From the IMG/VR virus record IMGVR_UViG_2529292720_000001: DNA of 12,088 nt; one strand, given 5' to 3'. A program made the translations under genes and the position numbers. Of this stretch, positions 1 to 12,088 are shown piece by piece (the first letter of the stretch is position 1; each line of letters opens with the position of its first letter). Below the pieces are notes generated by a model, which saw only the letters and a program-made list of their open reading frames with translations, was not told the origin of the DNA and did no database searches. Source of the stretch: a virus (Monodnaviria; Loebvirae; Hofneiviricota; Faserviricetes; Tubulavirales; Inoviridae).

Positions 1-1455
1 TTATTGATTCGACTCATATGCACTCCATTCATCGCATACATGGGAAAAGGTTGATTTCAGGGCTTCGTTATCAATCACAATTCGCTGAAGATTGGCCGTA
101 TTAGCCTGCTGAGATAGAAATCTTTTAGCGTAAAGATCAGGCATATGGCTATTGTGACTCCAACCGCCAAGTAGCCGTAATTCATCCTTGGCTTCATCCA
201 TCAATCCAACGATAGAAAAGTCTATGGCTGCCAAGTGTGAGTTGGCCTTAATTTTTTGAAGTTTATCACGATAAATACGTTGAAGTGTTAAATAAGCCCA
301 AGTATGCCGCGTTATATGAGGCGAGATGCTTTCAATGGCATCATAATATTCATCTTTTTTATATTCAGGATACTGCACACTCATAATGTCATCAATACGG
401 GTAAAGATATCATAGACTGCATGGTATGACAGTGGCGGATGTAGTCTTTGGGTGGAAGTGAACAGAAAACTATGGGAGGCTTGAGGGCGGATTTTATGGA
501 TATATATATTTAGAAAATGAAAGTCCAGTTTATCTAATGCCAGCACCCGGTTTGCATAAACATTTTTTAATGAAGGCAATCTTTTTCGTTGATCCGAAAC
601 GTCGTCATCTACTGTGGTCACAATCAGGCTGAACTGATCCCCTCGGAGATTTGGTTTGATCGAATGACACTCCAAAAGCAGTAATTCACTGACACGCAAT
701 CCGTAATTTAAAAGCAATCTGCAAATCAGAAAATTACGTAGCTGGATTTCACCAGCGGGGAAGGGATTGAGTGGGTTTTTCTTTGAAATTGAACCGGGTG
801 TAATGATTTGGTAAAAAGCCATGACCATCTCAGCAGTCAGACTTCGAAAGCGTTTATGGGTCGTGCCATTGTTCATCTGACGAGAATGGGTAAGAGTACG
901 GAATTCTGCCTTATGTATCGATAAACGTCCCGTTAACTGCGTGGCAAGTCGTGTAAGCTCTTTAGGCGTGCCATCTATATATCTCGGCGAGATATACGTG
1001 TTAATCAAATATCTGATAAAACGAATAACCGAATGTACATGCCTGATATTTGTACAACGTTGAGGCGTGGTCTGCGTAGTAGACCTTATGGTTAACGCTG
1101 GTACATATAAATGCGTATTTTCCAGATAATGAAAAAAGGCTGTAAGTTCATCAATGGCAATCAATGGATTGTGGTTCGAGGAATAGAAACTGAAGCAAAA
1201 AGTCACACCATGTTTCTGGTGCCAGAATTCATAGAAAAACTTGAGCGCTTGAAGTGAAGCGGATTGCGTGGCTGATGAACGCAAAGCAAGATGGTCGATA
1301 AGATATATTAACGGATATAAAAGCGGCTGGCGCGTGTGAGTATCCATCAGTGCCCATAAACGCTGCCGTTGGTTGATATTGAGTTGTGTAAGTATGAACA
1401 CGCGGCACTTAACCTTATCAATGGTGTGGATATGAACAAAGTAACCGACAAACAT
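1..1455 (-). CDS. tyrosine recombinase / phage-type integrase (large, ~484-488 aa), start uncertain
   Basis: Long minus-strand ORF ending with TAA at 1-3. The translation carries the tyrosine-recombinase catalytic signature in canonical order: box I Arg (NYGLRVSELLLL), box II H-x-x-R-H (SPHITRHTWAY), then LGGWSHNSHMPDLYAKRF with the putative nucleophile Tyr. The ORF-track start at 1467 is a TTG; the first ATG is at 1453-1455 with GCAGGA 4 nt upstream; another in-frame ATG lies at 1345-1347. The gene lies outside the dif-bounded prophage. Confidence 0.7.
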   Translation of the reverse strand: MFVGYFVHIHTIDKVKCRVFILTQLNINQRQRLWALMDTHTRQPLLYPLIYLIDHLALRSSATQSASLQALKFFYEFWHQKHGVTFCFSFYSSNHNPLIAIDELTAFFHYLENTHLYVPALTIRSTTQTTPQRCTNIRHVHSVIRFIRYLINTYISPRYIDGTPKELTRLATQLTGRLSIHKAEFRTLTHSRQMNNGTTHKRFRSLTAEMVMAFYQIITPGSISKKNPLNPFPAGEIQLRNFLICRLLLNYGLRVSELLLLECHSIKPNLRGDQFSLIVTTVDDDVSDQRKRLPSLKNVYANRVLALDKLDFHFLNIYIHKIRPQASHSFLFTSTQRLHPPLSYHAVYDIFTRIDDIMSVQYPEYKKDEYYDAIESISPHITRHTWAYLTLQRIYRDKLQKIKANSHLAAIDFSIVGLMDEAKDELRLLGGWSHNSHMPDLYAKRFLSQQANTANLQRIVIDNEALKSTFSHVCDEWSAYESNQ

Positions 1456-1546
1456 AACGTCCTGCAAGAAGAAGATAGAGGGGTAGGTAAGTGTATGATT
1501 AATCGTATCCTGTGGCCGGTTATGAACTAAATGACCGACGGACTAA

Positions 1547-1574
1547 ATTTAACATAATATACATTATGCGCACC
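1547..1574 (-). other. dif: chromosomal dif site (XerC/XerD recombination site), exact 28-bp consensus
   Basis: The plus strand reads ATTTAACATAATATACATTATGCGCACC; its reverse complement is GGTGCGCATAA-TGTATA-TTATGTTAAAT, i.e. XerC arm, 6-bp central region and XerD arm of E. coli dif as I recall it, with no mismatch. Confidence 0.9.
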
Positions 1575-1785
1575 AATGGTAAGGATGGCAGAAACTGGTT
1601 GGAATCGTTGACACTGGGCGTCGACTGGTTACTATCGGCAATGATTCAAAATCATCCGTTTCTCCAAACGAATCAGAATCGAATGTCTGTCAACAGTAAG
1701 TGAACAAGCCTAACCTCATGACCTCACCAATCAGGCCTGTTCATCATCGTTACTAAGCAATGAATTACAGAAGGCATGAGCATTT

Positions 1786-2031
1786 ATGGACTTATCATAT
1801 CTAGCTGAAATGACGATATCAGAGGAAACACAGTTCTTGACTGTTTTTGAGCAGCAACTAGAACATGATGTCGGTGAAGCAGCCCGAGCCTGTCTTCTTC
1901 GTGGCGTCCCTATTTATTACGCTGAAAAAAATACGCCAGAAGGATGTGTCATTAAAGAGTATCCCGATGGTCGCAAGAAGCTGGTTAGTTTTATGACTGG
2001 CACTGAAAAAGTAGTTAAGATTAAAGTCTGA
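1786..2031 (+). CDS. hypothetical small acidic protein (81 aa)
   Basis: ORF-track ORF with ATG start. The Shine-Dalgarno is weak (AAGG about 11 nt upstream). The protein has no TM segment and no motif I recognise. It lies just inside the left att end of the prophage, convergent with the 82-aa ORF. Confidence 0.35.
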   Translation: MDLSYLAEMTISEETQFLTVFEQQLEHDVGEAARACLLRGVPIYYAEKNTPEGCVIKEYPDGRKKLVSFMTGTEKVVKIKV

Positions 2032-2181
2032 TACTTCCCTAGCCGCGCCGCAATTAACTCCAAAGAAAAATAGAGTACTGTTGCGGCTTGGCCAACGCCA
2101 GACAGCAACAAAAACAAGTTTTGTTACTGCCCGGCGTTTACGATAATTCCGTCAGCATGGAGTTTTAGCGGCTAAAAATGT

Positions 2182-2430
2182 TCACCACCACCATGCAAAC
2201 GGCTTGTTGCTGACCGGAAATGCGATGCCGTCAGCGTCACGACCACGTACAACCTGATTGAGAAGCTTTCTGACTTCACGGCGCTCTGGCCGGGTCATCA
2301 TCATATTGCGATACCAGGACGGCGATTTATCAAACCATCTGGCACAACTGGCAAAATGTGAACCTACACGACGATAAGACTTAAGGCGGCCACTGGGAAG
2401 TCGGTCACGCGCCTTATTTTTTACAGACAT
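2182..2430 (-). CDS. hypothetical small basic protein (82 aa, Arg/Lys-rich, C-terminal WWW)
   Basis: Minus-strand ORF with a good SD (AGAGGA, 6-nt spacer, ATG at 2430), located 88 nt downstream of the secretin gene in the same orientation. It is strongly basic (many R/K), consistent with a nucleic-acid-binding protein. Local GC looks higher than the rest of the prophage (eyeball estimate about 52%). Confidence 0.5.
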   Translation of the reverse strand: MSVKNKARDRLPSGRLKSYRRVGSHFASCARWFDKSPSWYRNMMMTRPERREVRKLLNQVVRGRDADGIAFPVSNKPFAWWW

Positions 2431-2518
2431 AATAAATCCTCTAAGTAACTGAATACCTAGAAGATGTCGTACTGTTCATACCCCATTAAAGTTAACGCCA
2501 TAATAAAAATCCATACAA

Positions 2519-3763
2519 TCAGTTCAGGTTGTCCCGGAACAGTTCACCGCTCCTCGCGGCGCTGCGGGGCGTCGCCCTGCTCCGGTCAACCTTTCTGACC
2601 TGAAGCATCACCATAATATCAGTCTTGTTGCTTTCACTGGTACGGGAACCGAAGACGCTCCAGCCGGAACTGGCCTTACTGTCTTTCTGTTCAGCAAGGC
2701 CACCAAGCAAAATAATATCACCATCTGCAAGGCTGACTTCGGTTGTTACATCACGCTTGATAAGGGTTGGCGAGTTATTGACGCCGGTTTCAGTGGTCAC
2801 AAAGTTGGAAAGCTGCTGCTGAATCTTGAGATCCATTGTCCGACTTTTGATTGATGGCGTCACGTTAAATAAAACACCGCTGGAACGATATTCAACGGAT
2901 TGCGTGGTCGTATTGTTATTCACCGTAACACTGCCCAGTACTGGCACATCAGAGCCGACTGAAAAAGACGCTGAGGCATTATTTTTTACCCGTAGTCGTG
3001 GCGCACTGACAACAGTAAAACGACTGTCGGTTTTCAGCAGATTGAAAATGGCATCAATGGAGCCGGTTCGAATATTGATAAAATTATCCAGTCCGGCAGC
3101 ACCTACTGAAATATTGAATTTATCAGACAAGATTTTAGCCGCTAAAAGAATACCGGAGCCGTCAGACTGCGAGGTCTGAACCTCAAAAACATAACCAGAA
3201 ACAACCACTTCATCACTCATCGTATCCAGCGAAGTGACCAGTGTTTTCAGGATGGCGATGTCCTCTTTCGTACCATAATAAACCAGAATATCACCGGTTC
3301 GATTGATGTAGTTGCTTGCCCCTGATGAACCTTTTAGCGAATCGTCAGAAATCACGGCTCCACTGTTATTGAAGGAGCCTGAAACGTAGCCGCCAAGAAT
3401 ATCAGACAGGTAGGCAACAGAACGGTACTGAGGCGTATAAGTCCATGTATAACGTGGCTTAACCGGCTCTTTCGGCGTATAGGGCGCGATAAAATCAACA
3501 CCCTTTTTCGTCCATATTCGAATGTTCATATTGCCAAGATAACGGGTTACAAATTCCCGTTCATCAATATCAGGTGTTAACCTGAATGTAATCATTCGTT
3601 CATCATTAACAAGCTGTGGATCTAGCATATACGGGACTTTAAGCACCTCACTATAAATAAGAGAAATAGCCTCCGGTAGCTTGACTTTATTTAATTCAAG
3701 CTCTGACCCTGCGAAAGCACATGAAGAAAATAGTAGCGTTAATGCGAGTAAAATCTTTTTCAT
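2519..3763 (-). CDS. filamentous phage pIV-like secretin (outer membrane export channel)
   Basis: 414 aa with an N-terminal signal peptide (MKKILLALTLLFSSCAFAG). The C-terminal half has the secretin-domain character (VVSAPRLRVKNNASASFSVGSDVPV...GGLAEQKDSK). Its ATG overlaps the stop of the upstream Zot-like gene (TAATG at 3761-3765), and it occupies the last position of the morphogenesis operon as gene IV does in Ff phages. Confidence 0.85.
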   Translation of the reverse strand: MKKILLALTLLFSSCAFAGSELELNKVKLPEAISLIYSEVLKVPYMLDPQLVNDERMITFRLTPDIDEREFVTRYLGNMNIRIWTKKGVDFIAPYTPKEPVKPRYTWTYTPQYRSVAYLSDILGGYVSGSFNNSGAVISDDSLKGSSGASNYINRTGDILVYYGTKEDIAILKTLVTSLDTMSDEVVVSGYVFEVQTSQSDGSGILLAAKILSDKFNISVGAAGLDNFINIRTGSIDAIFNLLKTDSRFTVVSAPRLRVKNNASASFSVGSDVPVLGSVTVNNNTTTQSVEYRSSGVLFNVTPSIKSRTMDLKIQQQLSNFVTTETGVNNSPTLIKRDVTTEVSLADGDIILLGGLAEQKDSKASSGWSVFGSRTSESNKTDIMVMLQVRKVDRSRATPRSAARSGELFRDNLN

Positions 3764-4788
3764 TATTTTTTCCCCGTATAAAGCGTCACACGCTCACCAT
3801 CAATAATTCCGCTCATCAACATCCCTTTATAATTAAAACTGGATGCAGGAACGGCACGCAAAACACCGGCACCGTTAACAAGAATCACAAACGCCCTGCC
3901 TTCACTGGTCATTCTCCCTGATATACGCCACTCGGTTGAAAGTGACGGTTCAGCTGGTTCTGAGGGAGTATCTGGTGCAGGAGTAGCAGCGGAAGAACGA
4001 AACATGGCCGCATCACGTACATCTGTTGTAGCCAAATCTGGCGAGGGATCGCTTCGGCCAAACGTGCTGAAAAATGAGTAAATCAGCCAGCCTGACCCGA
4101 TAAACATCAATGGAAAAAGCACAAGAAAGAACCTGACTTTGCCAGAATTCCAGATGCTCTGGCGTTTATCTGTCTGCTTTTCATTACCGTTATTTCCTTC
4201 ATAGCTTTTATAAAGTTCAAAAATATCAGGGTTATATTTATTGCGATAACTGGTGACGAGGTTGCTTTTATAGATTTTGTGGCCTGAATATACGTCAATG
4301 CAGTAATGATTATTCAGGCCCAACGCTTTCAGCTTGCGCATCCGGTAAGTTGTTTCTATTTTGTCTTTCAGAAAGCGAGCAATATTAGAAAGTGACTGAT
4401 TTACAATAACCAAATCACAGCTAATACCCGTTTCAGGGTGCGTAAAATGACGATGTTCAGCAATAAATGATTTCTTCTCAGCCGTCATATCCTTATCGCT
4501 ACCGAAGATTCGCCATGCTTCATCAATAACAATTAAATCACCAAACTGGCAAAAGCTCCCTTCCCCACCTTTAAAAGGAAAGAAATCTGCTTTAAGTACA
4601 TCATCATTATCCACAACAATAATTTCTCCCGTTGCATCAGGATAACGTTCGGTGATTTTATCTTTTTGTAAACCATAAATGTTCGTCACAACTCTCCGGC
4701 CGCTGGTAAATGCAGGAATAATGACATTGCAAACGGCTTCATAACTTTTTCCTGAGCCGGGTATGCCAATATATGCAGAAATAGCCAT
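3763..4788 (-). CDS. Zot-like / pI-like phage assembly ATPase
   Basis: 341 aa with an N-terminal Walker A motif (MAISAYIGIPGSGKSYEAV), comparable to the M13 pI N-terminus (GKLGSGKT), and a Walker B-like LIVIDEAW. A central TM segment (FFLVLFPLMFIGSGWLIYSFF) is followed by a Pro/Ser/Thr-rich C-terminal region. It sits between the pVI-like gene and the secretin gene. Confidence 0.9.
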   Translation of the reverse strand: MAISAYIGIPGSGKSYEAVCNVIIPAFTSGRRVVTNIYGLQKDKITERYPDATGEIIVVDNDDVLKADFFPFKGGEGSFCQFGDLIVIDEAWRIFGSDKDMTAEKKSFIAEHRHFTHPETGISCDLVIVNQSLSNIARFLKDKIETTYRMRKLKALGLNNHYCIDVYSGHKIYKSNLVTSYRNKYNPDIFELYKSYEGNNGNEKQTDKRQSIWNSGKVRFFLVLFPLMFIGSGWLIYSFFSTFGRSDPSPDLATTDVRDAAMFRSSAATPAPDTPSEPAEPSLSTEWRISGRMTSEGRAFVILVNGAGVLRAVPASSFNYKGMLMSGIIDGERVTLYTGKK

Positions 4789-4791
4789 AAC

Positions 4792-5079
4792 TCACCCTAT
4801 AACAGGAATACGTCGAATAATAAAACGAGTAGCCATTGAGGAGATAATCATACTAATCCCCTGTGGTAATTTACTCAGGTTAATGAAGTACCAGAATCCG
4901 TCTGATAAATTGGCAAACAGCGATGAGAGATTGCTTGAATCTGGCAGTAACTCAACAAGGATTTCAACGAAGCCCTGGACTACAAAATACAGCGCAAAGA
5001 ATACGAAGAATTTAATAATCAATGACCGGAATACAAAACCTAACAAAGTATTTAATGCACTAATCAGAATCCCAAACAT
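4792..5079 (-). CDS. pVI-like minor coat protein (small hydrophobic virion protein)
   Basis: 95 aa, very hydrophobic with multiple TM-like segments, placed between the pIII-like gene and the pI gene with 3-nt and 12-nt gaps. This position and size class match gene VI of Ff phages. Confidence 0.6.
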   Translation of the reverse strand: MFGILISALNTLLGFVFRSLIIKFFVFFALYFVVQGFVEILVELLPDSSNLSSLFANLSDGFWYFINLSKLPQGISMIISSMATRFIIRRIPVIG

Positions 5080-5091
5080 AGTTGCACTCCT

Positions 5092-6804
5092 TTAGGCACT
5101 CAGAATAATACGGAGCGCAACAAATCCCCATATAATCAGAAATATGGTTTCTACGGCGCTTCTGTTCTGCTCAATTAACGGACAATGGGAGTCAATTCTG
5201 TACTGGTGATTAAACACGCTGAATTCAACAACGGGGCAGGATGCTGAACGAGAGCCGATGTTAAATTCGTTTGTAAAAGGCAACAAGTTAATAATTGGCG
5301 TTAAAATATCTCTTGCCGTTGGCGTTTCTTCAAGCTCAGGCTCTTTTACACCGGGATCTTCTCCCAAATCTATATTGCCATTATTTCCAGTGTCAGATCC
5401 TGAGTTGTTATTAATGGTAATATCAATATTGACGTCAGCCCCTGCACTGTCAGATACAGGTGAAAGCATATCTAATAACGTTGGAGATAGCCTAAGTTCC
5501 GACATCGCAGAAGTTACTTCAGCCGGTGAAACCTCTTTAAACGGTAAGCCGTTATAATCGGCATTAACGGCAGCTTCAGACCACAGCTCGTTAATCATGT
5601 CGGCAAGAAGTGCTGGCGATACACTAACACTATCAAGATACTCCAGATAATCAATCATGGACTCAATATTTCCGGCCTCCAGTACTTCCGTCATGGCTTT
5701 ATATTTGGTATTGGTCCAGATAGTAAGCTCACTCTTTTCATCAATATCTTTTGCGGTGTAATCCTCTTTTTCAGGAACGGCGCAAATCGTCGAATATCCA
5801 CCATTTGACTGATTAGTCGTTTTACAAGGCGTGTTGTGATACTGATATTGCTTTCCTGCTGTTAAATAAGCAACGCTGTAATACATGGGAAGCCCTGCTA
5901 CATTTTCATACATGGGAATACCTGCGGGAAATGAAGATGCGGCCGGGTTGCTATACAAGTGTGTAATCTCAGGTATTTCATAAAATGAGGAAGGATAAGT
6001 AAACTTATAATTCTGTTCAGTAAAGGATACATCTCCATTACTGTTGACAACTTTATTCGTCACAGTGCGTTCAAAATTCGTTAGTGTTTCAGTATAAGTA
6101 CGCGAGTTATAGTCATTAAGATAATTTCTGGCAATTTCAGTTGGATTATCACCATAGTAATAAATTAGCTCTTTCGAATCCTGATAATAATAAAGCGCAT
6201 TATCTGGCGTGGAATATCCTGTTTCAACACCTACAACTGGAGAACCCGCATCCACATTATTACGACTAACATGAAGGATTACCGGACTTAATTCCTGTGG
6301 TTCAAAATTAACGGTTATCGTCTTACTTTCACCACTTTGACCACTGTACGTTACTTCATATAAATTATCGGAAATCTTTTTACCGTTAGTCATTACCATT
6401 ACCGAGCCGTCAGATGAACTCAAAGAAGACGGAACAAAAGATGATACAGCAGCAGCAATACCCGCCCACGTTGCAACACCGCTCATTTTGTATGATGAGG
6501 CAGCAGGCAAGTATTCGGCAGCATTAGCCGCAGCGCGGCCAACAAAAACACGGGTTGCTGTAAGCTGTGATGCCGTATAAATCGCATCATTGGCAGCAAA
6601 GCGACGAACAAGCACCCGGCCAACGACTTTAGGAATAACAGCCCGCGCAGCCACTGCTGCAATTGCTGGTACAAATGAATATGAATATCGGGGAAAGGAA
6701 ACCCAGAGAAAGGAAAAAATAAAGGAATAAACCGTCAGCCTCTTAGCCCAAGAATAACGACATAAGCTGAGACGATCCCCCATAAAAGGGAACCCAATTT
6801 CCAT
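5092..6804 (-). CDS. pIII-like adsorption / minor coat protein (start uncertain)
   Basis: 570-aa ORF directly after the major coat gene and its terminator. It has a Gly/Asn/Ser/Asp-rich linker (NNNSGSDTGNNGNIDLGEDPG) and a C-terminal hydrophobic anchor (AVETIFLIIWGFVALRIILSA), as pIII has. There is an SD (GGAG, 8-nt spacer) before the ATG at 6804. The first ~110 aa are Ala/Val-rich and atypical, so the true start or N-terminal domain organisation is uncertain. Confidence 0.7.
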   Translation of the reverse strand: MEIGFPFMGDRLSLCRYSWAKRLTVYSFIFSFLWVSFPRYSYSFVPAIAAVAARAVIPKVVGRVLVRRFAANDAIYTASQLTATRVFVGRAAANAAEYLPAASSYKMSGVATWAGIAAAVSSFVPSSLSSSDGSVMVMTNGKKISDNLYEVTYSGQSGESKTITVNFEPQELSPVILHVSRNNVDAGSPVVGVETGYSTPDNALYYYQDSKELIYYYGDNPTEIARNYLNDYNSRTYTETLTNFERTVTNKVVNSNGDVSFTEQNYKFTYPSSFYEIPEITHLYSNPAASSFPAGIPMYENVAGLPMYYSVAYLTAGKQYQYHNTPCKTTNQSNGGYSTICAVPEKEDYTAKDIDEKSELTIWTNTKYKAMTEVLEAGNIESMIDYLEYLDSVSVSPALLADMINELWSEAAVNADYNGLPFKEVSPAEVTSAMSELRLSPTLLDMLSPVSDSAGADVNIDITINNNSGSDTGNNGNIDLGEDPGVKEPELEETPTARDILTPIINLLPFTNEFNIGSRSASCPVVEFSVFNHQYRIDSHCPLIEQNRSAVETIFLIIWGFVALRIILSA

Positions 6805-6827
6805 AATTCAATCTCCATAATAACCTC

Positions 6828-6855
6828 AAGTAAAACGGGCGATATTGCATCGCCC
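6828..6855 (-). terminator. intrinsic terminator after the major coat protein gene
   Basis: On the minus strand a 7-bp GC-rich stem (GGGCGAT/ATCGCCC, plus 6837-6855) with a 5-nt loop is followed by GUUUUA. It lies 14 nt downstream of the coat gene stop, analogous to the terminator after gene VIII in Ff phages. Confidence 0.55.
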
Positions 6856-6868
6856 ATGAATAATGAAT

Positions 6869-7102
6869 TTATGCGGATTTAACGGTACGCAATACCCAGC
6901 GAACGCCAGCGACACCGGCATAAAGTGTTACCAGTGAAGCAGCAACGGCCATAATCGCAACCAGAACTGTACTGAAATCAATGCTGTTCGTCAGCGGCGA
7001 TAAATCAACACCACTTGATGCCGCTCCTTCTGCAGCGAAAGTCGCGCCAGAAACAGCCATTAATGCAGGTACAGCCAGAAAACTAACGATTTTTTTAAAC
7101 AT
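6869..7102 (-). CDS. major coat protein (pVIII-like)
   Basis: 77 aa. Signal peptide MFKKIVSFLAVPALMAVSGATFA with an A-x-A cleavage site; the predicted mature protein begins AEGAASSG (M13 mature pVIII begins AEGDDP). It has an amphipathic N-terminus, a hydrophobic helix and a basic C-terminus (RWVLRTVKSA). SD is GGAG with an 8-nt spacer. Confidence 0.85.
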   Translation of the reverse strand: MFKKIVSFLAVPALMAVSGATFAAEGAASSGVDLSPLTNSIDFSTVLVAIMAVAASLVTLYAGVAGVRWVLRTVKSA

Positions 7103-7136
7103 AACTCTATCTCCATTACATTTTAAAGGTTCGCAT

Positions 7137-7388
7137 TCAAGCAGTACGAACCATCTTTATTACCTGTCCCACACCTACAGAAAAAAGCCAGAGCAGCAGG
7201 ACAGAGCCAAAACCTAATGTCCAGTAATTTCCTATTGCAGAATAATCAATTTGATGAAATGGTTCAGAACGTACCATTATTGCCTGACATTCTTTTGCAT
7301 TGTTCGCATTACATAAATAACCTTCAATACGGTAACCATTTTCAGGAATATGATTATCAAACTGAATATCGAAACCTGATGTATCCAT
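7137..7388 (-). CDS. small membrane protein in the pVII/pIX position (possible minor coat protein)
   Basis: 83-aa ORF tightly packed between the ssb-like and major coat genes (2-nt gap upstream), with a C-terminal hydrophobic segment (WTLGFGSVLLLWLFSVGVGQVI). It is larger than Ff pVII/pIX, and an internal Met start is possible. Confidence 0.45.
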   Translation of the reverse strand: MDTSGFDIQFDNHIPENGYRIEGYLCNANNAKECQAIMVRSEPFHQIDYSAIGNYWTLGFGSVLLLWLFSVGVGQVIKMVRTA

Positions 7389-7390
7389 AA

Positions 7391-7708
7391 TCAGCCTTTT
7401 ATTTCAGTAATGCCGCCATCTGATGAAATGTTATAAGTTACTCCTTCCCTCCCCTCCATTGACCAGACGCGAACATATACAGGTATCTGGACTAACTTAC
7501 CGATAAAATTATTTGCCTGATTCATTACACCGGCATTAACAAGAGCCTGAGATACACGAATAATAATCTGGTCTTGCTTAGTGCCACCAAAACCATCAGG
7601 AATCTCTAAGCCAACACCAATTTCATTATAGTATCCCTGACCATTGACCTTATTACGCTGGCGAGCACCAAGCATTTTACCTTTTACAAAAAGACCATAA
7701 TTAGACAT
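7391..7708 (-). CDS. ssDNA-binding protein (pV-like), putative
   Basis: 105-aa ORF immediately downstream of rep with a strong SD (AAGGAGAG, ATG at 7708). Position and size fit gene V; no sequence motif I can name with certainty. Confidence 0.5.
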   Translation of the reverse strand: MSNYGLFVKGKMLGARQRNKVNGQGYYNEIGVGLEIPDGFGGTKQDQIIIRVSQALVNAGVMNQANNFIGKLVQIPVYVRVWSMEGREGVTYNISSDGGITEIKG

Positions 7709-7719
7709 ATCACTCTCCT

Positions 7720-8772
7720 TTAATGCCAGTTACTGGCATGTGAAATACGGTTATAATCGAAAATTAAACCTTTCTCATAAACCCATGATGGAATTTTGGC
7801 TGGTTTGGCTTCAAGAGTACGAACCAACGGAACAACGTTATTAGAATCCGGTGACTCACAATAAAAGTTAATATCTATTCCGAAAGAAAGTAATTCTTTA
7901 CGGTGTCGGTAGAATGTAGGTTTCGGTAACATCTCTTTCATGTTCGCGCCCTGCTTCCACAATAAATATGTAGACTGTATTTTTCTTGGGAGATTAATTA
8001 TTTTTTCATCAGTTAATATGGTATTTTGATTCATTTCTATTCTCCCTACATAGTCAGAGAATAATTTATTGGGCGTCTCAATATTCCAGCTATTACCAAG
8101 CGTAAGATTCAAATCAATTAATTCAGTTGTTCTTAATGTTAATTCAATGCGTAATTTATCTTTTGACCAGTCCAGTAAACCAGCTTTAACGAATTCGTCT
8201 GCCATCTGGTGCCCTTTTTTGCCAGATGTATGCTCATCATATTTTGAATAAAATTTCAGGCTCCAACGACGGGAGTTTTTCCCTAAGTAAACAGTGCCAC
8301 CTTTACCACAGGCGCGACCGTGGCGAGTTTTAGCTTTAAATTCTGCGGCATATAGCCATGCGCGGACATTTTCTAATGTTGACAATGAATACATATAGTT
8401 GATATCAATACGCGAGATCTTAAATTGCCCTGCCATTACCTGTCGATAGGATGAAAGATCATGAGGAATATGCAGTAATGCCAATATTCTGGCATAAGCT
8501 GTTAATACTAACCCTTGCAAATCATCGGAACCGATAACAGAGTGACCTTGCAAAAACTTTGACGGATTGCCGTCAATATAGAGATGTGTTGCCCGACCTT
8601 CGCCATCAGATCCAACAGATCTTACTTTCATAGTGGATTCATACGAACCGCGAACAGTCAACCGTTTTACTGTTTCCCACTCCACTGCACCGTCAGCATC
8701 AACGCTGACGACACTACCAGCCGGTAATGGTCGGTGTATGCAAGGTAGGATCCCGGTAAACCAGTCAATCAT
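7720..8772 (-). CDS. rolling-circle replication initiation protein (pII / RstA-like, phage CRI family)
   Basis: 350 aa with the N-terminal MIDWFTG motif typical of filamentous-phage replication initiators. SD is GAGG with a 6-nt spacer. It is the first gene of the minus-strand operon and is divergent from the HTH repressor, as rstA/rstR are in CTXphi-like phages. Confidence 0.8.
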   Translation of the reverse strand: MIDWFTGILPCIHRPLPAGSVVSVDADGAVEWETVKRLTVRGSYESTMKVRSVGSDGEGRATHLYIDGNPSKFLQGHSVIGSDDLQGLVLTAYARILALLHIPHDLSSYRQVMAGQFKISRIDINYMYSLSTLENVRAWLYAAEFKAKTRHGRACGKGGTVYLGKNSRRWSLKFYSKYDEHTSGKKGHQMADEFVKAGLLDWSKDKLRIELTLRTTELIDLNLTLGNSWNIETPNKLFSDYVGRIEMNQNTILTDEKIINLPRKIQSTYLLWKQGANMKEMLPKPTFYRHRKELLSFGIDINFYCESPDSNNVVPLVRTLEAKPAKIPSWVYEKGLIFDYNRISHASNWH

Positions 8773-8939
8773 GTATCGCCTCAGAGAACAATTTTGTGAC
8801 CAGAAAGCCTGTCAAGAGCTTATTAGTACCAATTCAGTCACACAAATGTACAACCCAAGATCTTACCTCTCAAGTGATTTTGTACTGGATAAGTGACATA
8901 TTTGTTCTTTTGAAATGGAGCAAAAAAGTAGGATATAGA
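8773..8939. promoter_or_regulatory. divergent control region between rep and repressor (candidate promoters/operators, possibly replication origin)
   Basis: 167-bp intergenic region. On the minus strand there is a perfect -35 hexamer TTGACA (plus 8810-8815), about 40 nt upstream of the rep ATG, with only a weak -10 candidate. GTGAC/GTCAC half-sites recur (TGTGAC at 8795-8800, GTCACA at 8837-8842, GTGACA at 8893-8898), and TTTGT(G/A)AC-like motifs recur at about 8792, 8846 and 8878. Confidence 0.45.
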
Positions 8940-9392
8940 ATGAGCAACAACTTCAACAGTAATGGCTACCCGGAAGAAATGGCAGAAGACATAGACTTAC
9001 AGCGGGCAGAAAGGATAAAAAAAGCGATCCTAAGCAAATTCACATACGAAAGGATGGAAGAACTGTCTGGCATCAACATTGGCACACTGAAACGGATCGC
9101 AAACGCACAGAGGGATGCGAAAATCAGTGAGCTGGAAAAAATTGCTGAAATCACTCAGACAGACATATTTGAACTGATTTTTGGCTCCAGTAGCAGTGAT
9201 ATCTACGATTCCAGCAAACGCTTCTTTGAGACGAGAAGTAAAGATGCGGCTCAGGCGGCTCAATTCATCATCTACAATCTTCGTACCCTTGATGATGAGG
9301 ACATCCTTTGTTTGGGGAGGGTTTCGAGTGCCTTGCAAACAGCAACAACATCAAGAAAATGGGATGAGCTTTTCGGGAAGAAGAAAGGCTGA
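8940..9392 (+). CDS. XRE-family helix-turn-helix transcriptional regulator (phage repressor candidate)
   Basis: ATG at 8940 preceded by AGGA (6-7 nt spacer); the ORF-track start at 8796 is an unsupported upstream extension. 150 aa with a predicted HTH (MEELSGINIGTLKRIANAQRDAKISELEKIAEITQTDIFEL). Divergent from rep. Confidence 0.75.
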   Translation: MSNNFNSNGYPEEMAEDIDLQRAERIKKAILSKFTYERMEELSGINIGTLKRIANAQRDAKISELEKIAEITQTDIFELIFGSSSSDIYDSSKRFFETRSKDAAQAAQFIIYNLRTLDDEDILCLGRVSSALQTATTSRKWDELFGKKKG

Positions 9393-9438
9393 GTCTCAGA
9401 AATGAGACAAACGTGCAGTATTACCAACACTGCACGTT
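9393..9438 (+). repeat. two adjacent stem-loops right after the repressor stop (6-bp GTCTCA/TGAGAC hairpin, then a perfect 10-bp inverted repeat AACGTGCAGT-N9-ACTGCACGTT)
   Basis: Read directly from the sequence (9393-9408 and 9410-9438). No immediate U-tract follows; ATTTTT lies about 13 nt downstream. It could be a terminator or attenuator, or a phage cis element. Confidence 0.5.
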
Positions 9439-9476
9439 CTGGATTGAGCGATTTTTAAACACCAGAAAAAGGGTAA

Positions 9477-9875
9477 ATGATGAACAAAACAGTGTATGTA
9501 CCAAGCTACTTCCAGCCTATCTACAAAGAAGTAACCATCAAAGTTCCTACCGGAAACACAAAACGATTCCTGGGTCTCATCGACATTGAAGAAAAAATCC
9601 GAAAAAGAGAAGTTATTCAGGATGGCTGGTCTGATTGCCAGATTGACGGGGAAAGACTCAATGAAGATGTTGGTCGAGCCATTAATAAACTTAATCGGGA
9701 AGGGTATGAGGTTATTTCAATAACCCCTGCTACCTCAGGAAGCTGGGCTTATAAATATAAACAAAACAGTATTCGTAATGGAAACGGTGATGGCAGTTAT
9801 GGATATGGTTACGGTTATTCATACACCGAAGGCGTTATGATTCTGGCAAAGAAAATTGAGAAAGAGGACGTCTGA
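9477..9875 (+). CDS. hypothetical soluble protein (131-132 aa) with a Gly/Tyr-rich low-complexity insert; first gene of the accessory operon
   Basis: ORF with tandem ATGs at 9477 and 9480; AAGGG lies 3 and 6 nt upstream, so 9480 is the more likely start. It contains NGNGDGSYGYGYGYSYTEG. The 60-nt sample counted just downstream (9878-9937, start of the next gene) is about 33% GC. The stop is 2 nt before the next gene start. Confidence 0.6.
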   Translation: MMNKTVYVPSYFQPIYKEVTIKVPTGNTKRFLGLIDIEEKIRKREVIQDGWSDCQIDGERLNEDVGRAINKLNREGYEVISITPATSGSWAYKYKQNSIRNGNGDGSYGYGYGYSYTEGVMILAKKIEKEDV

Positions 9876-9877
9876 TA

Positions 9878-10240
9878 ATGGATTTTATCCGTAAAACTTT
9901 GGGTGGATTAAAAGCAAGTTATTATATCCGTCACTTCGTTTTTGGTGCATTAATTTCAACTTTCTTTATTTACATGTCAATGCAAAATCCTGGAGGGGTG
10001 AAGGTTGAAAATATAATTTTCTTTTTTATCAATGCGTTACTCTACCCTTACGCAAGGTTTGTATATGAGCAAATCATTGGGTTCATCATGGGTGAAAATG
10101 TCTTTTTCATCAACGTCATAGTGATGCTAACTGCCAAGATAATTACGATGTGTTTATGCTGGATATTTTCAGTATTCATAGCGCCAGTTGGACTGATATA
10201 TCTCTACTATTATCATTCAAAAGCTGATAAACAATTATAG
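9878..10240 (+). CDS. hypothetical small integral membrane protein (120 aa, 3-4 predicted TM helices)
   Basis: Translationally coupled to the upstream ORF (TGATAATG). Hydrophobic stretches: IRHFVFGALISTFFIYMSM, NIIFFFINALLYPYARFVY, VFFINVIVMLTAKIITMCLCWIFSVFIAPVGLIYLYYY. AT-rich. Confidence 0.6.
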   Translation: MDFIRKTLGGLKASYYIRHFVFGALISTFFIYMSMQNPGGVKVENIIFFFINALLYPYARFVYEQIIGFIMGENVFFINVIVMLTAKIITMCLCWIFSVFIAPVGLIYLYYYHSKADKQL

Positions 10241-10251
10241 AGGAAAATAAT

Positions 10252-10320
10252 ATGAGCATGGAAACAGGGGTTGCTATTATTATCTTGCTTGTGATTGTTG
10301 GTAAACTTATAGGACTTTAA
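10252..10320 (+). CDS. candidate 22-aa hydrophobic micropeptide (MSMETGVAIIILLVIVGKLIGL), not in the ORF track
   Basis: ATG at 10252 preceded by AGGAAA with a 7-nt spacer, starting 12 nt after the stop of the membrane-protein gene. It encodes a single TM helix and has a TAA stop at 10318-10320. The bidirectional terminator follows about 40 nt downstream. Confidence 0.35.
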   Translation: MSMETGVAIIILLVIVGKLIGL

Positions 10321-10353
10321 CATAAAACTGGTTCGCACAATGACGTTATGTGT

Positions 10354-10394
10354 AAAAAGGCCGCTGCGGGAGACATTTTAGCAGCGACCTTTTC
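10354..10394. terminator. bidirectional intrinsic terminator between the prophage plus-strand operon and hipA
   Basis: 9-bp stem GGCCGCTGC / GCAGCGACC (10359-10367 and 10381-10389) with a 13-nt loop. On the minus-strand RNA every position pairs (one G-U wobble) and UUUUU follows (plus AAAAA at 10354-10358). On the plus-strand RNA there is one C-A mismatch, followed by UUUU (10390-10393). Confidence 0.6.
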
Positions 10395-10395
10395 A

Positions 10396-10423
10396 ACATA
10401 ACGAGTCGTACATTATGCGCACC
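10396..10423 (-). other. hybrid dif-like site (prophage-chromosome junction; XerC arm intact, central region and XerD side phage-derived)
   Basis: The minus strand reads GGTGCGCATAA-TGTACGACTCGTTATGT. The XerC arm is identical to dif and the central region shares its first 4 bp, but the XerD arm is replaced. A XerD-arm-like TTATGTTGAAA (8/11 match to TTATGTTAAAT) is displaced by 5 bp, giving an ~11-bp spacer. Confidence 0.8.
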
Positions 10424-10499
10424 AGTGTAAACCAAGGAAGAATCCAGTCGTTGGCGGTCATGATTGTCGTGCTCATTAACAACGACCAAACCCCATATC

Positions 10500-11822
10500 T
10501 CACTTACTACCGTATTCTCGGCTTAACCGTCCATGCAACCTCAACACATTGGTTTCAACTGCCGTCACCACGTTCTCCGGAAAATCTGTCGGTAATGAAG
10601 TCTTCACGTTATCCAGTGCTGCCGGAATCATTCTGGCAAAGTCACTTAGGATTTCATGCATCTGCACTTCCGGGAATCTCAGCACCTTTGCTGTCGCCAA
10701 AAAATGTCGCGGATAAATTTTATCGATTGCCGTTTTTTTGCCTTTGGATGCGTTAAGCCCCATTGCCAGTTTGAGATCGCTGATGTGTATTCCCGTACCG
10801 CCAAGGACCGGAAATGCTGAAATGATGTCGTAAAATGGCGTGAGTCGATAACTGCCGCCAGCCTGAATAAATACGGAGAAGTTTTTTGCATGGCCATCCG
10901 TTGCGCCAATCAACCACTGGAAGACCTGGAATTTCATAAAATCATAACGATCGCGAAGCGCCTCGCTGGACCCCATCAAAAACGCCATGATCCGCGCGAT
11001 GCCTGGGCCTCCATCTGATTCATATTTCACAGATGAAGGTAAACCGAATGTCTGACACATATCCTCCTGTGGCAAGCGAAGTAAAACCGTTCGCTCAGTA
11101 TTCCAACGCCTGTCAAAACGTTCGACCGCTAACGCGCGCACCCTTCCCGCTTTAATGATTTCTGCGTCCGGAACATTCAACCCAAGTTCTTTCGCCAGCA
11201 GCAGACAGTAATACTCATTATCAACGCTTTGGCTGAGATCGAGCGTCGCATTGGGCTGCCTGATTTCGCCAATCGGTAATTTAATGATGTGCGTCGTCGG
11301 CGTTATTCCTTTCGGAATGCACCAGTCATTGCCTATTCTAAGCAGCGCTGTCTTCTCCTGCGCGCCAGCAACCGAGATGCGAAAGTCATTTTCTTCTCTA
11401 ATCATGCCCAGAGGGATATCTGCTTTATAAGCCGTTAATACTTCTTCAAGCCTGGCTTCAGTAAGCTTTTCCCATGCCATTATCGGGCGCGTTATGGTTT
11501 CATTTTCGGGTAATAACGTTACGGCACCAACGCTGTCTCGCCCTATTTCTGACAATAAATCAAACGGTTGTCTGGATTTAGCATGATAACGTTTAACGAT
11601 CCGGTCACGTACAATCGGGCTATCGGGTAACAGGTTATCGAAGAAGTTAAATACGGCATCTGAGGTGATATTCCCCCTCTGCAATGGCAGCGAAAGTGAC
11701 AACGGTCTGGCATAACGGCTGGCTAACCACTCCGGTGCATACTTAAAGGTGTGCGCGCCGTTGGCTAACTTCGTTAACTCGCCTACCCGCTGGTTGTTCA
11801 TCCAAGTGACAAGTTTAGGCAT
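10500..11822 (-). CDS. hipA: serine/threonine kinase toxin HipA
   Basis: The translation from the ATG at 11820-11822 (MPKLVTWMNNQRVGELTKLANGAHTFKYAPEW...REYGSK, 440 aa) matches E. coli HipA as I recall it. The 459-aa ORF-track version is an in-frame upstream extension into hipB. The hipB stop and hipA start overlap (TAATG). Confidence 0.95.
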   Translation of the reverse strand: MPKLVTWMNNQRVGELTKLANGAHTFKYAPEWLASRYARPLSLSLPLQRGNITSDAVFNFFDNLLPDSPIVRDRIVKRYHAKSRQPFDLLSEIGRDSVGAVTLLPENETITRPIMAWEKLTEARLEEVLTAYKADIPLGMIREENDFRISVAGAQEKTALLRIGNDWCIPKGITPTTHIIKLPIGEIRQPNATLDLSQSVDNEYYCLLLAKELGLNVPDAEIIKAGRVRALAVERFDRRWNTERTVLLRLPQEDMCQTFGLPSSVKYESDGGPGIARIMAFLMGSSEALRDRYDFMKFQVFQWLIGATDGHAKNFSVFIQAGGSYRLTPFYDIISAFPVLGGTGIHISDLKLAMGLNASKGKKTAIDKIYPRHFLATAKVLRFPEVQMHEILSDFARMIPAALDNVKTSLPTDFPENVVTAVETNVLRLHGRLSREYGSK

Positions 11823-12088
11823 TACCACTCCAGATCTTGCTGTTCTGTTGATTCTGGCGAGGCATTTTTCGTGTCGCATAGTGTCATTGAGAGTTCAAGC
11901 GACTGTAAAATCTTAAAAAATGTCGTGAGCGTGGTATTGTCAGGGTTGTTTTCGAAATTGGAAATTGTCGCCTGCTTAATGCCAATTTTTTTCGCCAGCT
12001 CGCTCTGCGTCCAGCCATTTTGCTGGCGAACCAGTTTCATTGCATTCGCCAATTGCGTTGGGCTATAGATCTTCTGAAAGCTCATCAT
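11822..12088 (-). CDS. hipB: HipB antitoxin / HTH transcriptional repressor
   Basis: 88 aa (MMSFQKIYSPTQLANAMKLVRQQNGWTQSELAKKIGIKQATISNFENNPDNTTL...) matching E. coli HipB as I recall it. The start codon is the last 3 nt of the window. It overlaps hipA by 1 nt. Confidence 0.95.
   Translation of the reverse strand: MMSFQKIYSPTQLANAMKLVRQQNGWTQSELAKKIGIKQATISNFENNPDNTTLTTFFKILQSLELSMTLCDTKNASPESTEQQDLEW

Follow-up and report, generated by a model that had tools for sequence, protein, structure and literature searches.

Does the short hydrophobic reading frame at the end of a filamentous prophage in Escherichia coli represent a gene and, if so, what could its product do? The stretch of DNA analyzed here (the window; 12,088 nucleotides) is E. 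coli chromosome with hipA on its minus strand (positions 10500 to 11879). Beside hipA, an inovirus prophage of the CUS-1/YpfPhi type is integrated at dif; it extends from about 1575 to 10426, roughly 8.85 kb. Prophages of the CUS-1/Ypf type have been associated with the fitness of invasive E. coli K1 and of Yersinia pestis. To answer both parts of the question, we consider how the reading frame is placed within the prophage, how it varies among related loci, where it is missing, and which partners or targets its product may have.

The micro-ORF and the prophage that carries it

The micro-ORF lies on the plus strand at 10252 to 10320 and consists of 22 codons and a TAA stop codon (ATG AGC ATG GAA ACA GGG GTT GCT ATT ATT ATC TTG CTT GTG ATT for codons 1 to 15, then GTT GGT AAA CTT ATA GGA CTT TAA). 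Sequence and translation confirm the initial annotation, which had reported a 22-codon hydrophobic ORF here and had described it as unannotated; indeed, no source annotates the peptide. The product, MSMETGVAIIILLVIVGKLIGL, has one predicted transmembrane (TM) helix, a GRAVY of 2.1, an acidic N terminus (E4), a basic residue near the C terminus (K18), and a conserved small-xxx-small motif (G17-x-x-x-G21). A Shine-Dalgarno (SD)-like GAGGA occupies 10240 to 10244 on the plus strand, so that its first G also ends the TAG stop codon (10238 to 10240) of the preceding gene, p120. Between AGGA and the ATG at 10252 are 7 nt. A strong SD had thus been recognized correctly, but its description as AGGAAA-N7-ATG misstates the spacing, as only 5 nt follow AGGAAA; likewise, the gap between the membrane protein gene and the ATG is 11 nt and not 12 nt. 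We found no promoter or terminator between p120 and the micro-ORF.

Could such an ORF arise by chance? In 300 dinucleotide shuffles of the window, ATG-initiated ORFs of at least 20 amino acids with an SD core and a GRAVY of at least 2.0 occurred at 0.003 per shuffled window, compared with one observed, under thresholds set post hoc, when the ORF had already been seen. Conservation in related loci, described below, is a stronger argument against chance than this test.

On its minus strand, the prophage carries a II/X-family replication gene, a gV-like DNA-binding gene, a coat gene, a gIII-like gene, a DUF2523 gene, and genes for Zot and a secretin; an HTH regulator and two hypothetical genes are on the plus strand. 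One prophage end is a perfect 28-bp E. coli dif (1547 to 1574, minus strand). The other is a CTX-type attP at 10327 to 10426, formed by two inverted XerC/XerD-like sites. These dif-like sites lie at 10330 to 10357 (plus) and 10396 to 10423 (minus), with GGTKCGCAYAAT at 10330 (plus) and 10423 (minus). As single-stranded DNA (ssDNA), the region from 10322 to 10432 folds into a forked hairpin with a bulged center (dG of -26.4 kcal/mol, z of -5.9; 0 of 200 shuffles were as good), and its apex consists of a GC-rich stem (10359 to 10390) followed by TTTTC (to 10394). The locus therefore shows the features of a CTX-type IMEX attP, namely, inverted dif-like sites, a forked ssDNA hairpin, and a dif at the opposite prophage end. 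This CTX-type arrangement has been described for the YpfPhi phage family (PMC4266046). The initial annotation had placed a terminator downstream of the micro-ORF; the hairpin is there, but it is the apex of the attP forked hairpin. With its stem and T run, this apex could still terminate transcription. On the minus strand, the attP stem is followed by TTTTT and may also terminate hipBA transcripts. In strain 90-9280 (L001, 5759 to 11093), the cargo is preceded by three tandem copies of a unit made up of the replication gene, the regulator, and a truncated gV, in agreement with the tandem arrays reported for YpfPhi.

The cargo begins after the regulator gene, which encodes an RstR/Xre-like HTH protein (8940 to 9392, plus strand). 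It is followed on the same strand by a spacer at 9409 to 9465 (ACGTGCAGT...ACTGCACGT) with a hairpin at 9409 to 9439, common to prophages with differing cargo. This spacer is probably the left recombination boundary of the cassette or a regulatory site for it. The cassette itself (approximately 9470 to 10321) comprises three plus-strand genes: p132 (9477 to 9875), which encodes a hypothetical protein of 132 amino acids (PHROG 15841); p120 (9878 to 10240), which encodes a four-helix membrane protein of 120 amino acids and always directly precedes the micro-ORF; and the micro-ORF, whose stop codon lies 9 nt before the first attP site, so that attP is the right boundary of both cassette and prophage. 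L003 and L004, sister prophages integrated at this dif/hipA site, align with the window as far as about 9465 and again from about 10322, with unrelated genes in between; therefore, p132, p120, and the micro-ORF form a variable cassette. It is carried by 14 of 5,426 complete E. coli genomes, none of which has the micro-ORF annotated.

ORFs between an rstR-like regulator and the attP end differ between YpfPhi and CUS-1, and their function is not known (PMC4266046). The genes described here resemble YPO2271/2272 of YpfPhi and orf1/orf1a of CUS-1 in being swappable ORFs between the regulator and inverted XerCD sites (PMC4266046), whereas the published descriptions mention two ORFs there, with no micro-ORF as a third. 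With p132, p120, and the micro-ORF, the cassette of the window adds another variant to this position.

This placement bears on one possible role. In size and hydrophobicity, the peptide is similar to pVII and pIX of Ff phages, and it too is a tiny hydrophobic protein of a filamentous phage; the initial annotation had drawn this analogy. Yet the analogy fails, and a minor virion or assembly protein of this kind is very improbable. While pVII and pIX are encoded within the morphogenesis module (gV-gVIII), on the virion gene strand, the micro-ORF runs opposite to all morphogenesis genes and lies in a swappable cassette outside the conserved backbone. It is also absent from closely related phages that share this backbone and attP (L003, L004, L044, and L088) and remains intact in L040, where only a fragment of the replication gene is left.

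Alleles of the micro-ORF and signs of coding

Using p120 and p132 as handles, we searched GTDB genomes, IMG/VR, metagenomes, and a large protein collection for alleles of the micro-ORF. Six were found, each directly after a p120 homolog (76 to 100% identical) and a few bases before an attP of the same type. They encode MSMETGVAIIILLVIVGKLIGL in the window (Ec1), MSMEIGVAIIILLVIVGKLIGL in other E. coli loci (Ec2; L002 and L037), MSMETGIAIIILLVIVGRYIGL in L036, MELETGAGIIILLVIVGSYLGIGK in L047, MALETAVGIIFLLVIVGSYIGIGK in Brenneria (Ba), and MDLSTGIVIIILLVLVSNYLGIGK in Photorhabdus tasmaniensis (Pt). All six retain the ATG, the reading frame, and a gap of 11 to 12 nt after the p120 stop codon, together with an SD-like purine motif (GAGGA, AGGGG, AGGGGG, AGGTG, or GGCGAGA) at the same distance. 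The initial annotation had proposed conservation of the ORF and its SD in related prophages as a check, and both are kept in these alleles.

The peptides are 22 to 24 amino acids long, have a GRAVY of 1.4 to 2.3, and are uncharged from residue 6 to residue 17. M1, I9, I10, L12, L13, V14, V16, and G21 are invariant, and (G/S)17-xxx-G21 is kept across the alleles. The charge pattern is kept as well: the N terminus is acidic, and either position 18 or the C-terminal end carries a basic residue, consistent with a helix oriented N-out/C-in. The 24-amino-acid alleles of Brenneria, Photorhabdus, and L047 are in the frame of p120, separated from it by one stop codon and four codons (L041, 2344 to 2453; L040, 2344 to 2453; L047, 1188 to 1297). 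The E. coli micro-ORF is in a frame different from that of p120.

The alleles are not equally informative. Ec1 and Ec2 are nearly identical over the 3' end of p120, the micro-ORF, and attP, whereas the rest of p120 has a pS of 0.54. Along the alignment of the window with L037, identity rises from about 0.8 to at least 0.9 at approximately 10150 to 10180, within the last helix of p120. This step indicates a recombination breakpoint that would link the 3' end of p120, the micro-ORF, and attP. Because of this breakpoint, the comparison of Ec1 with Ec2 says nothing about selection.

Across the six alleles, the minimum numbers of changes at first, second, and third codon positions are 11, 10, and 24, respectively, a third-position excess of 24 in 45 (binomial P = 0.004); for the core codons 9 to 16, they are 3, 0, and 8. 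By Nei-Gojobori counts, Ec1 and the Brenneria micro-ORF differ with a pS of 0.64 and a pN of 0.25, while p120 at the same two loci has a pS of 0.60 and a pN of 0.12. The micro-ORF thus has a pS like that of p120 and a low pN, suggesting that replacement sites are held back, although to a lesser degree than in p120. In the comparison with Photorhabdus, omega (dN/dS) is 0.6 to 0.8, that is, weak selection, and the replacements exchange one hydrophobic residue for another. We also scattered as many substitutions as had been observed randomly over the E. coli sequence and counted as successes those outcomes that kept an open frame with a start codon, an uncharged core, and an amino acid identity at least as high as that observed; the resulting P values were 9e-5 for Brenneria and 6e-3 for Photorhabdus. 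The sense frame is the only one of the six frames open in all alleles, and the antisense ORFs of E. coli are interrupted in both Brenneria and Photorhabdus. These tests draw on six related alleles and are not independent of one another. On the pattern of substitutions, the micro-ORF is under purifying selection at the amino acid level.

Alternatively, the micro-ORF could be nonfunctional, either a chance ORF in an AT-rich spacer or what is left of the TM-coding part of an older gene beside attP. That selection on it is weaker than on p120 would agree with such an origin. Its start codon, SD, spacing, and frame have nevertheless been kept over about 33% nucleotide divergence, and the third-position excess, the pN below pS, and both simulations argue in the same direction, so that we regard a nonfunctional ORF as improbable. 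Our assessment is that the micro-ORF is very likely a real, translated gene. The initial annotation had suggested a component of the cargo operon, and its suggestion is supported by the position inside the swappable cassette with no promoter or terminator of its own after p120; the short gap and SD-like motif of the six alleles and their coding-type substitutions, from which we infer translation, add to this.

Conservation at the RNA level does not offer another explanation. We detected no conserved RNA structure over the SD, start codon, or ORF (consensus fold of -3 kcal/mol) and no Rfam match for the region; an RNA element therefore does not account for the conservation. A hairpin sequestering the SD, which appears when the single sequence is folded, was rejected because it is not conserved.

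These observations also weigh on the possibility that the peptide is a toxin. Ibs, TisB, and ShoB-type toxins are small and extremely hydrophobic and consist of a single helix. The micro-peptide, with its size, its GRAVY of 2.1, and its one helix, resembles them and, more generally, the type I toxins of 19 to 35 amino acids (Ibs/Sib, TisB/IstR, ShoB/OhsC, and Ldr/Rdl). It is also borne by a mobile element and adjoins a small multipass membrane protein, p120, that might serve as an immunity protein. As a free-standing membrane-active toxin, either of type I or similar to a small holin, it would depolarize the membrane in the service of prophage maintenance, abortive infection, or exclusion. However, tightly repressed type I toxins differ from the micro-ORF, which closes a three-gene unit, is probably cotranscribed with the genes upstream, and is preceded by a strong, unstructured SD. 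The structured leader or occluded ribosome-binding site of such toxins has no counterpart here, as no pairing at the SD or start codon is conserved. Nor is there a sign of an antitoxin: no small RNA family in Rfam matches, promoter-like sequences on the antisense strand are at chance level (5, compared with 4.6 expected from shuffles), and the antisense strand has no conserved structure. Overall, we consider a toxin unlikely.

Loci in which the micro-ORF is missing, decayed, or replaced

We next turn to p120-bearing loci that lack an intact micro-ORF. In the Salmonella inovirus L044, attP directly follows p120. In the inovirus L088 and the plasmids L017 and L023 to L026, p132 and p120 are followed by a terminator and a gene encoding 114 amino acids, again with no micro-ORF, and it is likewise absent from other p120-bearing plasmids, Oxalobacteraceae chromosomes, and an integron cassette. 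Two loci show decay next to an intact p120: a 1-nt frameshift in Lonsdalea (L038), where a profile HMM detects it in two frames, and a deletion of most of the micro-ORF in L028, where a 3' remnant is left. The initial annotation had named loss of the frame in homologs as evidence that would count against the gene; the frame is lost in L038 and L028 but kept in the six alleles. Since p120 is intact where the micro-ORF is missing or decayed, p120 does not need the micro-ORF. Judged by this distribution, the micro-ORF is accessory and dispensable both for the phage and for p120. Its absence or decay in L028, L038, and L044 would also be expected of a nonfunctional ORF. Furthermore, p120 is common without the peptide and so is not a dedicated immunity protein, contrary to what a toxin-immunity pair would imply. 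The idea that the micro-ORF decays once the phage is lost fits L028 and L038, but we do not adopt it, as intact copies are also present in L040 and L041, where only fragments of the phage remain.

The converse association is strict. In IMG/VR, we compared about 20 distinct cargo ends adjoining this type of attP; their last gene is highly variable, and the micro-ORF occurs only after p120; in none of the collections searched did we find it without p120. A back-translated IIILLVIVG pattern retrieved from IMG/VR only the known E. coli loci and unrelated TM segments. Three peptide variants (two from E. coli and one from Brenneria) were absent from about 15 billion predicted proteins, and the literature searched yielded no mention of the peptide. 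Searches with the peptides by tblastn against phage and plasmid collections gave no matches, a result for which the default low-complexity filter may be responsible by masking hydrophobic queries. Among curated families, the best Pfam match had an E value of 0.28, a PHROG of unknown function matched with E values of 0.03 to 0.4, and NCBIfam, PADLOC, and Rfam gave none.

In Kosakonia radicincitans (L045, 2377 to 2583), a gene encoding 68 amino acids with two TM helices occupies the position of the micro-ORF, between p120 and the dif-like site. An 'ETG...LLVV' resemblance between the two products is superficial, and homology is not supported by profile search; the same holds for ALETAPGLIVWLLVVGAGIFFG, an internal TM segment of a 140-amino-acid cargo protein of L003 and L004. 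When these 68- and 140-amino-acid candidates were compared by tblastn in a tiny database, 12 of 22 residues were identical, yet neither protein was among the top hits of a profile HMM built from the six peptides and run against 11,123 open frames. The Kosakonia gene thus shows that the same place can hold something else, as a nonfunctional micro-ORF would allow, but the failure of the HMM to recover either protein speaks against a leftover fragment.

What, then, might a dispensable membrane peptide act on? Many bacterial single-TM small proteins act on membrane protein targets (reviewed in PMC12648545). The micro-peptide could accordingly be a phage 'moron' micro-protein that acts not on p120 but on a host membrane protein, such as a sensor kinase, a transporter, or the envelope stress machinery engaged in filamentous phage secretion. 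The wide occurrence of this mode of action (PMC12648545) and the many unrelated small membrane proteins that hold the same cassette position in sister phages would agree with this. In contrast, the peptide is never found apart from p120 in the collections searched, and its sequence points to no host target. A host target thus seems to us unlikely, if slightly less so than a toxin.

p120 as a candidate partner of the micro-peptide

Strict adjacency to p120 is the sole functional clue, and for this reason we rank an accessory partner of p120 first among the possible mechanisms, with low confidence. The micro-ORF would share a transcript with p132 and p120, as the final one of the three cassette genes, and initiation at the ATG at 10252 would use the GAGGA that overlaps the p120 stop codon, through either reinitiation after p120 or direct initiation. 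The 22-residue product would enter the inner membrane as a single TM helix, probably N-out/C-in because an acidic residue is N-terminal and a basic residue lies at or near the C terminus. There, by analogy with KdpF, CydX, and AcrZ, it may serve the four-helix p120 as a small accessory partner or as a modulator and may pack through its conserved (G/S)17-xxx-G21 face. That the peptide acts together with p120 is, in our view, a tentative proposition. For the account as a whole, in which a translated gene of the cargo cassette encodes a single-TM inner membrane peptide that is a partner or modulator of p120, we hold the prospects of its being right or wrong to be evenly balanced.

Comparison with the class that includes KdpF, CydX, AcrZ, and MgtS helps to place the peptide. 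Like these proteins, it is shorter than 50 amino acids and has one hydrophobic helix, and its gene is tightly beside and co-oriented with a larger membrane protein gene; it is likewise dispensable, poorly conserved in sequence, and routinely overlooked by annotation. As expected of an accessory subunit, it is encoded in the same operon as its putative partner and always with it, although p120 often occurs without the micro-ORF. Unlike members of this class, the micro-peptide shares sequence similarity with none of them, its gene belongs to phage cargo and not to a housekeeping operon, and p120 is functionally uncharacterized. The micro-peptide is a new family within the well-known class of small hydrophobic single-TM proteins.

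A further variant of the p120 partnership is that the peptide is a detachable fifth helix of the p120 family, a split-off or added subunit that gives the prophage a membrane-level function. It draws on the in-frame arrangement with p120 in Brenneria, Photorhabdus, and L047. We saw no C-terminal TM extension, the sign of a split gene, in the longer p120 homologs, and this variant appears doubtful, about on a par with a toxin. If it were true, a p120-peptide complex tuned by the peptide could provide superinfection exclusion, defense, or relief of envelope stress, and it would constitute a new phage-borne system of a small protein and its partner.

Little can be read from p120 itself: it matches no Pfam, NCBIfam, or PADLOC family and has no sequence relative in the PDB, and its AF2 model (pLDDT of 79) had no match in the PDB at an E value of 0.001 or lower by Foldseek. 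Its family consists of widespread, uncharacterized four-helix membrane proteins, with relatives on plasmids (Xylella, Xanthomonas, Vibrio, and uncultured-bacterium records), in a Pseudomonas phage, and on Oxalobacteraceae chromosomes. The relative on the Vibrio gangliei plasmid pVgang (L019) adjoins the resistance genes dfrA15 and aadA13. Homologs of p132 also occur paired with an unrelated soluble protein of 103 amino acids and not with p120 (L034, 2477 to 3212; L027, 1524 to 2221); p132 may be a common module with exchangeable partners.

One regulator-adjacent cargo cassette thus holds a third, conserved, and never-annotated candidate gene for a membrane micro-protein, an example of a selected small ORF overlooked by PGAP and by Prodigal-based collections. 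Until it can be tied to a phenotype, its practical value is modest. The same prophage contains a second unannotated small ORF, on the minus strand at 6735 to 6818, with an SD and an ATG and a predicted product of 27 amino acids, MEIELWKLGSLLWGIVSAYVVILGLRG. It is identical in L002, leaving no divergence for a test of selection, and it is located just past a hairpin and T run, within the 214 nt without annotation that separate the coat gene from the annotated start of the gIII-like gene.
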